Origin: Escherichia coli
GTDB lineage: Bacteria > Pseudomonadota > Gammaproteobacteria > Enterobacterales > Enterobacteriaceae
Strand: one strand, 5' to 3'
NCBI RefSeq assembly: GCF_030013595.1
Contig: NZ_CP122768.1
Length of the DNA stretch: 64,000 nt
Positions 56,087 through 64,000 of the stretch are shown piece by piece. The translations under genes and the position numbers were made by a program. The notes under the pieces are model-generated. The model made no database searches. It was not told where the DNA came from and was given only the letters and a program-made list of their open reading frames with translations. Each line of letters opens with the position of its first letter. Positions within the stretch are counted from its first letter, which is position 1.

Positions 56087-57010
56087 CTAGCGCGTTCGCT
56101 GCGAAAGCACCTGCTGCTTATCCAGCTTTTGCACCAGCGGCTGCACCACTTTATCCCCATGCTGACCAAAGTATTGATACAGCGTATCGGACGCACTTTT
56201 GGTCAGCACCATAATCTCAATGCGTCGGTTGCCCGCGCTTTGCGGATTTTTCGCGTCCAGCAGCATCTGGTCCGCCATCGCGCTTACCTGCATCACTTTA
56301 TCTTCCGGCATTCCGGCCTCTTCCAGCACCCGACGGGCCGAAAGCGCGCGATCGCCCGAAAGGTTCCAGTTGTTGTAGATATTGTTTTTGTAGGCCATCG
56401 CATCGGTATGCCCGGTAATAATAATTTTGTTATCGAGCGAGTCGAACACTGGCGCGAGCTCCACCAGCAAAGTTTTAAAGAACGGCATAATCTGCGCGCT
56501 GCCGCGTTCAAACATATTGCGGTTCTGGTCATCTTTAATCAGCACGCGTAATCCCTGCGGGACAATCTCCATCTCCAGATTCGCTTCCATATGTGCATCA
56601 CGGGCAATGGTGTTGATACTGGTTGCCAACTCGCCAAGCTCGGTGGCGGATTTCTTCTTCAGCAGCGCCGGTTTCTCATTCACATCACGCGCTTTTTTCT
56701 CCGTCTCTTCCGGCACCGCTACGGTGGCAGGTTTTGGCGGATGAGACGGGCTGATTTTATTTAACGGCGACAGCCCACCACCGTTAAAAATCGACTGCCC
56801 GTGCAGCGCGGCGATAATGCTTTCACGCTCGGATTTACTGACGCTGTTGACAATCCACAGCGTCATAAACAGCGCCATCATTGCCAAAGTAAAGTCGGCG
56901 AACGTCACCTTCCGCGCCCCGCCGTGGTGCCCGGCATGATTCTTTTTGATCTGCCGCCGGACGATGGTGGTTTTTGCCCCACGCTCGCGGCGGTTGCCCG
57001 TCTTTCTCAT
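56087..57010 (-). CDS. lafU: Lateral flagellar motor protein LafU (MotB-like)
   Basis: TM segment FADFTLAMMALFMTLWIV and C-terminal OmpA-like region; apparently intact here; ORF track start 57043. Confidence 0.8.
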   Translation of the reverse strand: MRKTGNRRERGAKTTIVRRQIKKNHAGHHGGARKVTFADFTLAMMALFMTLWIVNSVSKSERESIIAALHGQSIFNGGGLSPLNKISPSHPPKPATVAVPEETEKKARDVNEKPALLKKKSATELGELATSINTIARDAHMEANLEMEIVPQGLRVLIKDDQNRNMFERGSAQIMPFFKTLLVELAPVFDSLDNKIIITGHTDAMAYKNNIYNNWNLSGDRALSARRVLEEAGMPEDKVMQVSAMADQMLLDAKNPQSAGNRRIEIMVLTKSASDTLYQYFGQHGDKVVQPLVQKLDKQQVLSQRTR

Positions 57011-57012
57011 GC

Positions 57013-57876
57013 TTATTCTTGCTCCAGCATCGCATTCACCCACGCGTCGAGGTTGGCGAAGGTCGGTTTAGATGCCAGATGCAGCAGCTTACGCCCGGCG
57101 TCCACCGCCAGCAGGGTCGGTTTGCCGCCTGCCTGCGCCACCAGCACGGTGCGCACGCATTCCAGCAAAGAATGTTCCGCCCGTGCCTGTTGTTCCATGG
57201 CGTTGGCAAGCGGGTCCATCAGGCAGTAGCAGATAAAGACGCCTAAAAACGTCCCCACCAGAGCCGCCGCCACTTTCAGGCCAATCAGGGCGATAGATCC
57301 ATCAATCGACTGCATGGTGATGATGATGCCCAGCACCGCCGCGCAAATACCAAATCCCGGCATCGCTTCGGCAGTACGTTGCAGCGAGCGCGACGGCGTT
57401 AACAGGGACTCTTCCGCGGTGTCCAGTTCCTGATCGAGAATGCCTTCCAGTTCGTGGGCGTCGATTTTGCCCATCGCCATCAGGCGAAAGTTATCGGCAA
57501 TAAAGGTCACCAGCCGCTTCTGGGTTAATACCAACGGGTATTTCTGGAAAACGGTGCTATCTTCCGGTTGCTCAATATGCTGATCCAGCATGCGCAGGCC
57601 GCCGTTTTGTACCATTTCAAGCAACTCATACAGGCACATTAATAGCTGACGCTGAAACTCCGGCCCGAGCTGTTTTTTACTGATCACGCCTTTAATTTGA
57701 TGGGCAATCTCTTTCAGCACATGTTTCGGGTTACCAATAATCATCGCCCCAAAACCGGCACCCAAAATAATGATCATCTCCGCCGGTTGCCAGATAGCCA
57801 CTAATTGCCCGCCCGCTTCAAAATAACCGCCAAATACGCAGCCGAGCACCACCAGTAAACCTAATATTTTTTGCAT
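57013..57876 (-). CDS. lafT: Lateral flagellar motor protein LafT (MotA-like)
   Basis: 287 aa four-TM protein, N-terminus MotA-like. Confidence 0.8.
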   Translation of the reverse strand: MQKILGLLVVLGCVFGGYFEAGGQLVAIWQPAEMIIILGAGFGAMIIGNPKHVLKEIAHQIKGVISKKQLGPEFQRQLLMCLYELLEMVQNGGLRMLDQHIEQPEDSTVFQKYPLVLTQKRLVTFIADNFRLMAMGKIDAHELEGILDQELDTAEESLLTPSRSLQRTAEAMPGFGICAAVLGIIITMQSIDGSIALIGLKVAAALVGTFLGVFICYCLMDPLANAMEQQARAEHSLLECVRTVLVAQAGGKPTLLAVDAGRKLLHLASKPTFANLDAWVNAMLEQE

Positions 57877-57888
57877 GATTTCTTCACT

Positions 57889-58605
57889 TTAATTCGGATA
57901 GACAAAATCACGAATTTTCTGCGCGATCTGTTTATTCAGTTGACAAATTCGGGCCTCGGTTAGCCCTAATACCAGCGCAATTTCTTTGAGATTCATCTCA
58001 TGCTGGTAATACATGGAGAGGATCAGTTGCTCTTTTTCGCTTAATTGTGAAAGCGCCTGTTGCAACATTTGCTGGGTGACAAACTGATCTTCCAGTTCCC
58101 GGCCAGCAAGCGGAATGCCAGGCCCTTCGCCGTTCAGCAGTTCGTCAAGGCTGGCGAGCGTTTCCGCCCCTTCCAGTTGCTGATATTCGAGATAATCTTC
58201 ATGCGAGATCCCTTCCACGGCCAGTTCTGGCCACTCCGGTTCGTGCCCCAGTTTTTTACGCGTTTCGCGAATCAGGTCTTTCATCTGATGATATTTCTGT
58301 CGCAGCTGGCGCGGTCGCCAGTCGAGAGCGCGCAGCTCATCAAGGATCGCGCCGCGAATACGGTGCACGGCATAGCCGGCAAAACCTTCGTCCGGCAGCC
58401 CGTAGCGGCGAATGGCGTTAAGCAGCCCCATTAACGCCGTTTGTTCCATATCCTGACGGTCAATAATGCAATTACACTGCGGGGCAAGTTGCCGCACCAC
58501 TTTACGCACCAGTGGTAAATAGGCCTGCAAGTAGTGGCTCTCCTGCTGCGGGGTTAATACCGGCGCGGCAGCAAATTCTTCTGACTCGAATACGTCCTGT
58601 AGCAT
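57889..58605 (-). CDS. lafS: Lateral flagellar sigma-28-like factor LafS
   Basis: 238 aa sigma-70-family protein with region 4 HTH (LKEIALVLGLTEARICQL). Confidence 0.75.
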   Translation of the reverse strand: MLQDVFESEEFAAAPVLTPQQESHYLQAYLPLVRKVVRQLAPQCNCIIDRQDMEQTALMGLLNAIRRYGLPDEGFAGYAVHRIRGAILDELRALDWRPRQLRQKYHQMKDLIRETRKKLGHEPEWPELAVEGISHEDYLEYQQLEGAETLASLDELLNGEGPGIPLAGRELEDQFVTQQMLQQALSQLSEKEQLILSMYYQHEMNLKEIALVLGLTEARICQLNKQIAQKIRDFVYPN

Positions 58606-58624
58606 GTTTATATCCGCCTGGTGA

Positions 58625-62205: not shown

Positions 62206-62379
62206 TGATGACTCCGGGTAACGATGTCAGGTTAATGGCAAAAGGCGTGCCAATATTTTTTATGTGAATAATCAATAGATTGAAAAACAGGCGGAAATGG
62301 TGTTTCCGGTCTGGCGGAAAAAAGCCTGCCGCTGAAAGCACAACACCGCCTGCAGGCGGTGTTGAGACTGATGACAAAC

Positions 62380-62500
62380 GCAACACTGCCTGATGCGCTG
62401 CGCTTATCAGGCCTACAAGGTTTCTGCAATATATTGAATTTGCAGTATTTTGTAGGCCGGATAAGGCGTTTACGCCGCATCCGGCAAGTCCGCCATTACT
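62380..62500. repeat. REP / BIME repetitive extragenic palindromes between lafB and lafA
   Basis: gcctgatgcgctgcgcttatcaggcctac and gtaggccggataaggcgtttacgccgcatccggca units typical of E. coli REP elements. Confidence 0.7.
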
Positions 62501-63410
62501 GCAGCAGGCTGGAAACCATGCTGGACATGCTGTTGGACTGTTTCAGCATGGTGATGCCGGTCTGCATCAGCACCTGCTGTTTGGTCATGTTGGACGCTTC
62601 CGTCGCGTAGTCGGTATCCATGATGTTACCGATAGCAACTTCGGTGTTGTCCTGCATGCTGGTCAGGTTATTAGCCGTGTCGTTCAGACGGTTGATAGAC
62701 GCACCCAGTTTGGACTGGATCTGAGACACGTCATCCATCGCGGTAGAGATGCTGGTGATCATCTGGTTAGCCGAGCCAGACGCAGTCAGCTCAGTACCGC
62801 CAGAAACGCCTGCGGTGCCCGTGGTGTCAGCCTGATCCGCACTAAAGGAGTTGCTGATAGCAGAAAGATCAGTCACCAGGGTATTCAGCTGGCTTGAAAT
62901 ATTCACGGTCATGGTGTCGGAAGATTCCGCGCCCACCTGGAAAGTTACCGCGCTCTGGAACAGACCGTCAGTACCGGTGTTGCTGGTGCCGGAAACACCG
63001 AACAGGTTGGTGCCGCCGTAAGTGGTGTTTTGCAGCATGTCAGACATCTGCTGGCCCAGTTCGTCGTATTCGTCCTGCATCGCCTGCAGGTCGTCGTCGC
63101 TGTAGGTGCCGTTCGCTGCCTGAGTTGACAGGTCTTTCATACGACCCAGCACGTCAGACATTTCGTCGAACATGCTGTCAGCGGTTTGCAGCATCGCGGT
63201 GGCATCATTGATGTTGCTCAGCGCAACACCCATACCGCTGGACTGTGCTGTCAGACGGTTAGCAATTTGTTTGCCTGCGGCGTCATCGGCAGAAGAGTTA
63301 ATCCGGTTACCCGTTGCCAGGCGTTCCATAGATGTAGACAGAGAAGAGCTGCTTTTGCTGATTGCATTAACGGCGGCCATTGAGGCGTTATTGGTGTTAA
63401 TAGATAACAT
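62496..63410 (-). CDS. lafA: Lateral flagellin LafA
   Basis: 304 aa from MLSINTNNASMAAVNAISK with conserved flagellin N- and C-terminal helices (LQ end) and AGGAG SD; ORF track start 63476. Confidence 0.85.
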   Translation of the reverse strand: MLSINTNNASMAAVNAISKSSSSLSTSMERLATGNRINSSADDAAGKQIANRLTAQSSGMGVALSNINDATAMLQTADSMFDEMSDVLGRMKDLSTQAANGTYSDDDLQAMQDEYDELGQQMSDMLQNTTYGGTNLFGVSGTSNTGTDGLFQSAVTFQVGAESSDTMTVNISSQLNTLVTDLSAISNSFSADQADTTGTAGVSGGTELTASGSANQMITSISTAMDDVSQIQSKLGASINRLNDTANNLTSMQDNTEVAIGNIMDTDYATEASNMTKQQVLMQTGITMLKQSNSMSSMVSSLLQ

Positions 63411-63894
63411 GATACTGCTCCTTGGGATTAATCGTTTTCGTTTCGATACCCTGTAAAAACGACACCTCGGGAGCAAACTTAAAACCGCTATGAAAAAAAT
63501 TCGCTACGTATTATCCGATGCCACTTTTAGCTAAAAAAAGCAGAGTTTAAATTCAGATAAAAAGATTATTAGCAATATCTGCCACATGGCCAGGTATCAA
63601 AATATGTCTTAATCAAACGCTTGATATAGTTAAGATTGTCATCAATTATCGCGTTTTGTTCTCAATGTACTGATGCCAAAATTTACATTGCGTTGCAAAT
63701 AGCACACATTTGGCTATTGTACCTGTCCTGTCATTTCGTTACATTTCCACGCCATATAGTGATTAAGAATAATCCTATTACCGTAAAATATTAATTATCA
63801 CGCAGAAAAATCATCTTCTCAGGGACGTATAAGACTGTGCTTTATGCAAAGCACTATCAGGAAACATTTATCCCTTGCTAAGGTAAACTCAACT

Positions 63895-64000
63895 ATGAGT
63901 ATTATTATCAACAACTGGCGGATGGACCCGTCGCTTAATGCCTTAATACATTGCGAAACGGGTGAAACACGTCGTCTCGGCGAATACCATTTTATTTTGC
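63895..64000 (+). CDS. Possible start of a winged-helix (ToxR/CadC-like) regulator, perhaps lafZ; continues past window end
   Basis: ATG at 63895 opens a frame reading MSIIINNWRMDPSLNALIHCETGETRRLGEYHFIL, reminiscent of OmpR/ToxR-type N-termini; only 35 codons visible. Confidence 0.3.
   Translation, partial: MSIIINNWRMDPSLNALIHCETGETRRLGEYHFIL

Follow-up and report, generated by a model that had tools for sequence, protein, structure and literature searches.

The lateral flagella of Vibrio parahaemolyticus and Aeromonas have been shown experimentally to drive swarming, and their genes are expressed in a hierarchy in which LafK and sigma-54 act first and LafS, a sigma-28 factor, acts afterwards. 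A lateral-type, secondary flagellar locus, Flag-2, is known in Escherichia coli: De Maayer et al. (2020; PMC6993521) found it in 24 of 100 E. coli, gave the content of its cluster 3 as lafWZABCDEFSTU and, citing Ren et al. (2005), described E. coli without Flag-2 as carrying an lfhA-lafU deletion. The Flag-2 locus of strain 042 is inactivated by a frameshift mutation (PMC6993521). Here we have analysed a stretch of 64,000 nucleotides of E. coli DNA (assembly GCF_030013595.1, contig NZ_CP122768.1), which we refer to as the window, and we assign its positions 56087-64000, with a probability of roughly 0.93, to cluster 3 of Flag-2 at its canonical site beside dinB. Strain 042 has the same genes as the window, in the same order and orientation and at the same dinB site (Ren et al., 2005, in PMC6993521). 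Flag-2 beside dinB is an already known, published and ordinary accessory locus, and what the window contains is not a new kind of system.

Cluster 3 is the dinB-proximal third of Flag-2 and consists, in the window, of lafA, lafBCDEFSTU and the start of lafZ. The genes are the following:

54961-56016: dinB, 70 bp downstream of lafU
56087-57010, minus strand: lafU, MotB-like stator subunit, 307 amino acids, intact frame (NF005273; Pfam MotB_plug and OmpA)
57013-57876, minus strand: lafT, MotA-like stator subunit, 287 amino acids (TIGR03818), Pro173 and Tyr217 kept
57889-58605, minus strand: lafS, FliA/WhiG-type sigma-28 factor of the lateral system, 238 amino acids (NF009091)
58625-59092, minus strand: lafF, FliL-like basal-body-associated protein, 155 amino acids (Pfam FliL)
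59100-60161, minus strand: lafE, FliK-like hook-length control protein, 353 amino acids (Pfam Flg_hook; also a YscP/FliK-like match)
60158-60469, minus strand: lafD, FliT-like by position only, 103 amino acids, its stop overlapping the lafE start by 4 nt
60474-60866, minus strand: lafC, FliS-type flagellin export chaperone, 130 amino acids (TIGR00208)
60889-62205, minus strand: lafB, FliD-type filament cap, 438 amino acids (NF005955; Pfam FliD_N and FliD_C)
62496-63410, minus strand: lafA, lateral flagellin, 304 amino acids (NF033376)
63895-64000, plus strand: 5' end of lafZ (first 106 bases), ToxR/CadC-like regulator, divergent from lafA and cut by the end of the window

The stop of lafU at 56087 and the start of dinB at 56016 are separated by a gap of 70 bp, an adjacency that is also found in annotated complete genomes and in the K-12 remnant of the locus, and the order lafZ / lafA / lafB-C-D-E-F-S-T-U, read from the map of open reading frames (ORFs) together with the family matches, agrees with that published for cluster 3. 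From lafU to lafA (56087-63410), nine consecutive ORFs run on the minus strand without internal stops, and their lengths are those of genes annotated as non-pseudogenes by the Prokaryotic Genome Annotation Pipeline (PGAP) in three complete genomes. The start of lafU lies at ATG 57010 in three annotated complete genomes, where the program-made ORF list had GTG 57043, and that of lafA at ATG 63410, where the list had TTG 63476. The first-pass annotation, made from the sequence alone, had described all of lafU, lafT, lafS, lafF, lafE, lafD, lafC, lafB and lafA as full length, and the stop-free frames, the family scores and the annotated lengths bear this out. Its further statement that all laf genes have good Shine-Dalgarno sequences holds for lafA, lafB, lafE and lafU; those of lafD and lafT, two genes that touch or overlap the gene before them, are weak.

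Family membership was judged against curated family models and Pfam. LafU scored 568.9 bits against the NF005273 equivalog (cut-off 383) and 212.7 bits against the MotB equivalog NF006548, which is under the cut-off of 277, and LafA scored 666.9 bits against the lateral flagellin model NF033376 (cut-off 440). The LafA protein is identical to WP_000949083.1 and is also the same, residue for residue, in three other alleles. By these scores, LafA and LafU are assigned to the lateral flagellin and LafU families and not to the FliC and MotB of Flag-1. Scores above the cut-off were also obtained for LafT (374 bits against MotA TIGR03818, cut-off 304), LafS (446.9 bits against NF009091, cut-off 339), LafC (79.2 bits against FliS TIGR00208, cut-off 53.75), LafE (62.5 bits against Pfam Flg_hook, cut-off 29.8) and LafF (41.3 bits against Pfam FliL, cut-off 24.6, the NCBIfam FliL matches being weak). 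LafB matched the FliD model NF005955 with E = 2.3e-44, under the equivalog cut-off, and for LafD no model among the curated families and Pfam reached its cut-off. The equivalence of LafD with FliT is taken from PMC6993521; the protein has 103 amino acids in all four alleles compared, being identical in HCP5S3_I2 and Santai and differing by three substitutions in Z1323HEC0462. The roles that follow from these family assignments would be filament (LafA), cap (LafB), flagellin chaperone (LafC), hook-length control (LafE), a FliL-like function (LafF), sigma-28 (LafS) and a proton-type stator (LafT/LafU).

The distribution of the locus agrees with the published one. When the lafA-lafU block was counted as present if at least 80% of window positions 56000-64000 were covered, it was found in 1,268 of the 5,426 complete E. 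coli genomes, that is, in 23%, as compared with the 24 of 100 reported before. The lfiI-lafK block, which belongs to the other part of the locus, was present at the same minimum coverage in 1,274 of them, and the two parts of the locus therefore travel together at the population level. In K-12 MG1655, the pseudogenes lfhA' and lafU' abut each other beside dinB and nothing else of Flag-2 is left, just as the first-pass annotation had stated, and this lfhA'/lafU' scar is the same as that described for K-12-type strains. A blastn comparison of K-12 240-256 kb with the window and with the far end of the locus in HCP5S3_I2 placed the end of the homology inside lafU:

56858: end of K-12 homology inside lafU, the Flag-2 deletion junction of K-12-type strains

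All Flag-2 DNA from window position 56858 through to the lfhA remnant is missing from K-12, in which the lafU' and lfhA' remnants have a 15-bp stretch in common. A deletion on the far side of window position 64000 occurs in isolate GCA_012651895.1.

The window ends within lafZ, and whether the remaining part of Flag-2 is present was addressed by looking up the exact sequences of window proteins in draft assemblies; the contigs recovered in this way are identical to the window and come from assemblies other than the source genome. None of the complete RefSeq E. coli genomes (n = 5,426) is identical to the window. The nearest, HCP5S3_I2, aligns without gaps over 19,032 bp and has 12 mismatches (99.94%), and a 25-kb query gave no collinear match above 97.6% among the complete RefSeq E. 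coli genomes. In HCP5S3_I2, the locus extends over ~41 kb from lafU to lfhA, and its only PGAP pseudogene is a frameshifted lysine-N-methylase. Contig ABCXWG010000010.1 (GCA_020302665.1) is 100% identical to window positions 46087-64000 and continues with lafZ, lafW, lfgL-lfgA, lfgMN and lfiJIH, and contig DBKRDT010000032.1 (GCA_053634795.1), which matches 8,215 bp of the window at 100% identity, contains the whole lafU-lfhA locus of ~40.9 kb followed by yafL. The order on the identical contigs is lafZ, lafW, lfgL back to lfgB, lfgA, a methyltransferase and an EcoRII-like endonuclease, lfgM, lfgN, an uncalled lafV stretch, a glycosyltransferase of 823 amino acids, a small CTP-transferase-like gene, lfiJIHGFE, lafK, lfiMNPQR, lfhBA and the housekeeping gene yafL. 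Clusters 1 and 2 (lfhAB, lfiRQPNM, lafK, lfiEFGHIJ and lfgNMABCDEFGHIJKL), as well as lafW and lafZ, which lie outside the window, are present and called at full length on these contigs, where all conserved genes except lafV are called at the lengths they have in HCP5S3_I2. The translation of lafZ begins MSIIINNWRMDPSL; the full gene of 280 amino acids is annotated in HCP5S3_I2, and its Pfam Trans_reg_C domain scores 51 bits on an identical contig.

The exception, lafV, encodes an accessory FliB-like lysine-N-methylase and contains one additional T at about codon 256 of 309, which shifts the frame (locus L014 of GCA_020302665.1, ~14669-15596, corresponding to 43767-44697 of HCP5S3_I2, locus L001). 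On a metagenome scaffold (locus L017) the gene is intact, with 309 codons. The frameshift is present both in the window lineage and in the relative that has the usual residues W33 and A36 in LafU (see below); it is therefore older than the lafU changes and has been tolerated. These results support the first-pass annotation in its suggestion that a second flagellar system, complete or nearly so, may be present in the strain. Its proposal to extend the sequence past 64000 in search of lfg and lfi genes could be followed indirectly, the source genome itself not being the sequence used, and these genes are present on the identical contigs; upstream genes that were absent or pseudogenised would have spoken against its suggestion, and on these contigs only lafV is broken. 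Compared with strain 042, in which the frameshifted gene is reportedly lfgC, the window lineage has lfgC at full length (143 amino acids, on identical contigs) and has lafV broken instead, and it differs further by its LafU allele and by an EcoRII-like restriction-modification pair between lfgA and lfgM.

An alternative is that the source genome holds a partial Flag-2 locus that is truncated somewhere beyond base 64000. Truncations do occur in this lineage: one isolate shares 15.8 kb of identical sequence with the window, up to a rearrangement or deletion breakpoint at window position 61918 (position 5093 of locus L008), inside lafB, which is followed by unrelated genes of CitMHS, YkuD and ABC-transporter type. 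The window, however, runs past this point, with lafA and the first part of lafZ still inside it, a complete locus follows in two independent contigs whose identity to the window up to 64000 is 100%, and the near-equal population counts (1,268 for one end of the locus and 1,274 for the other) point in the same direction, which leaves a truncated locus very improbable.

The restriction-modification pair between lfgA and lfgM consists of a cytosine-5 DNA methyltransferase and an EcoRII-like endonuclease (Pfam EcoRII-N and EcoRII-C) and occupies positions 10947-13643 of L014, corresponding to 40033-42750 of HCP5S3_I2 (L001). It is a cargo insertion of the kind described by De Maayer et al. (PMC6993521). 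The locus is also unusually rich in small intergenic repeats. Several intergenic gaps of Flag-2 contain imperfect repeats of ~120-140 bp with CCCTCTCCC...GGGAGAGGG cores and 88-90% identity, and additional repetitive extragenic palindromic (REP) elements are found in the lfgD-E and lfgF-G gaps:

L001 32178-32299: intergenic repeat, lfgJ-K gap
L001 34461-34582: intergenic repeat, lfgG-H gap
L001 44708-44846: intergenic repeat, gap between lafV and the glycosyltransferase gene
L002 ~8516-8600: intergenic repeat, lafK-lfiM gap

It should be noted that intact laf reading frames need not mean a working lateral motor, and that LafU in particular may not work. When the nine window proteins were compared with those of the 99.94%-identical relative, LafA, LafC, LafD, LafE, LafF, LafS and LafT were identical, and the only three residue differences were V83A in LafB and two substitutions in LafU:

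56912-56914, minus strand: codon of LafU W33R, changed nucleotide 56914
56903-56905, minus strand: codon of LafU A36T, changed nucleotide 56905, 9 nt from the W33R change

These residues precede Asp39, which corresponds to the proton-binding Asp32 of MotB, by six and three positions. Neither substitution was found in any of the 1,078 complete genomes matching the segment, the best match being 97.2%, that is, two mismatches in 71 nt. The possibility that they are sequencing errors was ruled out by the recurrence of the exact protein in many independent assemblies; the exact LafU of 307 amino acids is present in 126 indexed blocks of public draft assemblies and in five fetched loci. W33R/A36T is thus a genuine lineage allele.

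Like MotB of E. coli, LafU has a MotB_plug and OmpA architecture, with D39 corresponding to D32, and the LafU of other strains carries the motif W-K-V-A-F-A-D. The LafU of the window, in contrast, reads R-K-V-T-F-A-D. Relative to the motif of stator B subunits, W-x-x-A-[FY]-A-D, Asp39 is kept, and the tryptophan at D-6 (equivalent to MotB W26) and the alanine at D-3 are replaced by arginine and threonine, respectively. Conservation at these positions was assessed in homologues from a collection of 1.84 billion proteins clustered at 50% identity, of which the 150 best cluster representatives were taken; the transmembrane motif is present in 131 of these 150. The residue at D-6 is Trp in all 131 motif-carrying MotB/LafU homologues, and also in four further homologues read by eye; that at D-3 is Ala in 130 of the 131. 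We considered A36T as a conservative change, Thr occurring there in some distant MotB/PomB proteins, also in one PDB alignment, and rejected this view given the predominance of Ala in the closest diverse homologues. A PDB search with the LafU N-terminus gave only marginal matches, which started after the residues of interest. In E. coli, W26 of MotB is in contact with Y217 of MotA, and W26A is reported to matter for function, according to a 2023 article (PMC10117855, citing Deme et al., 2020); the Deme preprint makes no mention of MotB W26, and the W26A statement is second-hand. LafT keeps Tyr217, the partner of the W26-equivalent position.

LafU therefore appears to be a member of the MotB/LafU family by descent that has an atypical motif and is possibly defective. 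Because W33R and A36T hit positions that are invariant in diverse homologues and lie near the proton-binding Asp, the balance tips towards a lateral stator that is impaired in this lineage, a view that draws on conservation and on the second-hand W26A report. If expressed, a system with such a stator would assemble filaments whose rotation is poor or absent.

Whether Flag-2 of this lineage nevertheless constitutes a fully functional second motility system, with rotating lateral flagella and swarming on viscous or solid media, has to be weighed against these changes. About 40 uninterrupted genes over 41 kb on the identical contigs, plausible sigma-54 and sigma-28-like promoters (see below) and the retention of the locus in ~23% of E. 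coli, which suggests some selective value, would all fit such a system. It is more difficult to reconcile with non-conservative or rare LafU substitutions at two positions invariant in 131 homologues and near an essential Asp, with the frameshift in lafV and with lafB having been broken independently in lineage mates; moreover, no demonstration of Flag-2-driven motility in E. coli turned up in the papers found. Taken together, we consider full function unlikely.

Besides the isolate with the breakpoint inside lafB, another, otherwise identical isolate (L012, ~15611 and ~20607) has lost 1 bp in lafB and, in frame, 9 bp at the 3' end of lafU. The lafB lesions of these lineage mates are independent and are signs of erosion in the lineage. 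They bring up the possibility that the locus is a silent, decaying relic, on its way to being lost as in K-12, and that its intact frames merely reflect a recent relaxation of selection. The lesions in these two isolates and in lafV are in line with this possibility, and so are the deletion of the Flag-2 locus from most E. coli and the fact that, of just 12 differences from the nearest relative in 19 kb, two fall 9 nt from each other on invariant LafU residues. Yet all core structural, export and regulatory genes are full length, seven proteins (LafA, C, D, E, F, S and T) are identical to those of the nearest relative, and the lafV frameshift predates the lafU changes and was tolerated. We regard the relic as a serious possibility, if short of an even chance. 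Another conceivable explanation of the paired W33R and A36T changes, with ~40 other Flag-2 genes intact, is selection for a non-rotating or re-tuned apparatus, such as a filament used in adhesion or secretion or a stator with altered ion coupling; this we hold to be quite improbable, and simple decay is the alternative to it.

As regards the expression of cluster 3, which we read as part of a complete Flag-2 locus with a probably impaired stator, the genes from lafB to lafU follow each other closely, at intergenic distances from -4 to 22 nt, and a gap of 290 bp separates lafA from lafB. In the order of transcription, this gap contains a bacterial interspersed mosaic element (BIME), a strong hairpin, a hairpin followed by a T-run and a sigma-54 motif, and its RNA fold has a z-score of -7.9. 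The elements in this gap, and the one upstream of lafA, are the following:

62388-62485, minus strand: BIME, two inverted REP elements between lafA and lafB, 62452-62485 GCCGGATGCGGCGTAAACGCCTTATCCGGCCTAC and 62388-62416 GTAGGCCTGATAAGCGCAGCGCATCAGGC
62292-62364, minus strand: two hairpins 3' of lafA, candidate lafA terminators, CAACACCGCCTGCAGGCGGTGTTG at 62341-62364 and CGGAAACACCATTTCCG with a T-run at 62292-62308
62238-62252, minus strand: sigma-54 promoter motif TGGCACGCCTTTTGC, a perfect match, 33 nt upstream of the lafB ATG
63456-63482, minus strand: sigma-28-like motif TTAAGTTT-N11-GTCGTTTT, starting 72 nt upstream of the lafA ATG, with its 3' end 45 nt from the ATG

The sigma-54 motif was defined as TGGCAC-N5-TTGC with a spacing of 10 nt between GG and GC, located upstream of a gene for which a cognate enhancer-binding activator exists. 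The site at 62238-62252 has these properties and is the only perfect match in the 64-kb window, for which ~0.23 matches would be expected by chance, so that the count by itself is not decisive. In the 48 kb of the HCP5S3_I2 locus, the core GGCAC-N5-TTGC occurs three times, each time ~35 nt upstream of the start of an operon (lafB, lfgB and lafV), in the correct orientation and preceded by an A-rich tract. An activator of the appropriate type, LafK, with the domains Sigma54_activat and HTH_8, is encoded in the locus. Based on these observations, the motif at 62238-62252 is a putative LafK-dependent promoter of the lafBCDEFSTU operon. Looser sigma-54 patterns, allowing one mismatch or degenerate positions, were dropped since their matches occurred at chance frequency, and only the perfect GGCAC-N5-TTGC was used; TGGCAGATATTGCT and TGGCATCGGATAATAC upstream of lafA were rejected as sigma-54 sites, having the wrong spacing or no -12 element.

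Motifs related to the sigma-28-like one upstream of lafA precede lfgM and lfgK in the complete locus. Together with flagellin, lfgM and lfgK form the classic late-gene set. The pattern was derived post hoc from these same three sites (lafA, lfgM and lfgK) and hence serves as a hypothesis and not as a test; the motif upstream of lafA may be regarded, tentatively, as a putative LafS-dependent promoter. The sigma-54 motif, the sigma-28-like motif and both REP elements are conserved in alleles of 97% identity.

The most likely cascade, judged from these motifs and from the lateral systems of Vibrio and Aeromonas, would run from LafK/sigma-54 through LafS to lafA. LafK, encoded elsewhere in the locus, would fire the sigma-54 promoter 33 nt upstream of lafB, giving a single transcript of the tightly packed genes lafBCDEFSTU; LafS produced from this transcript would then drive the monocistronic lafA gene via the sigma-28-like promoter, and lafA transcription would stop in the region of the hairpins and the BIME. 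A terminator-like scan reports the second hairpin (62292-62308) as a candidate terminator. The likeness to the laf systems of V. parahaemolyticus and Aeromonas lies in lafA, in genes of the fliD, fliS, fliT, fliK and fliL types, in the dedicated sigma-28 and in the MotAB-type stator, as well as in the presence of LafK in the locus, of a sigma-54 motif before lafB and lfgB and of a sigma-28-like motif before the flagellin gene. Unlike in those systems, the hierarchy of E. coli Flag-2 is deduced here from motifs alone, and the system is known here from its genes.

Several points weigh against the picture that we propose of this locus. According to De Maayer et al. (PMC6993521), the function of Flag-2 in Enterobacterales is largely uncharacterised. 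The completeness of the locus is derived from identical contigs of other assemblies, and the effect attributed to W33R/A36T from conservation and the second-hand report on MotB W26A, the Arg found here differing from the Ala tested there. The promoters were assigned by motif matches only, the sigma-28-like pattern departs from the -10 consensus of FliA, and in a scan of the complete locus none of lafK, lfiE and lfiM had a convincing sigma-54 motif, the absence upstream of lfiE and lfiM counting against the cascade.

The BIME between lafA and lafB confirms the REP elements that the first-pass annotation had noticed there. Both are ~35-bp imperfect palindromes of the GCCGGATG...CCGGCCTAC type, form an inverted pair and are intergenic and multicopy; the number of such consensus-type REP matches expected by chance is 0. 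The element at 62452-62485 gives a 40-bp match of 97.5% to a K-12 REP that lies beside the REP-associated transposase gene rayT. Because of the REPs inside it, an 8-kb query finds matches in 5,425 of the 5,426 E. coli genomes, the median number of matching places being 24 per genome.

At the other end of cluster 3, the gap between lafU and dinB (56017-56086) contains the SOS box of dinB, CACTGTATACTTTACCAGTG (LexA box at 56031-56050, minus strand), and a sigma-70-like promoter. No recognisable terminator follows lafU in these 70 bp, and transcription of the lafB operon might therefore conceivably continue into dinB-yafNOP.

Beyond dinB, the window is collinear with HCP5S3_I2 only from position 44969 on, at the tRNA-Thr/proA end. 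Upstream of this point (window 1-44968, as compared with L001 1-8969), HCP5S3_I2 has a lambdoid prophage and the window has different DNA, and other genomes annotate a YfjI-family protein there, so that the region looks like a variable integration hotspot. Between pepD and yafP, at 52954-53508, remnants of prfH and of an RtcB-family RNA ligase gene are found, which are pseudogenes in HCP5S3_I2 and are annotated as ykfJ and prfH in K-12. The phoE gene (47832-48887) has an internal stop in HCP5S3_I2, from which the window differs at position 48069, and it is called intact, with 351 amino acids, on an identical contig (locus L006).

In summary, Flag-2 is found in about a quarter of E. coli, and its presence in this strain is ordinary and of little consequence except for correct annotation; its location beside dinB will not surprise the specialist, and the LafU allele is a modest footnote to it. 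Since two invariant residues are altered in this lafU allele and lafB is broken in lineage mates, a negative motility result obtained with this strain would not generalise. The sigma-54 and sigma-28-like motifs provide concrete promoter positions that are testable, and a lineage with a complete locus could serve for functional tests of Flag-2 in E. coli.

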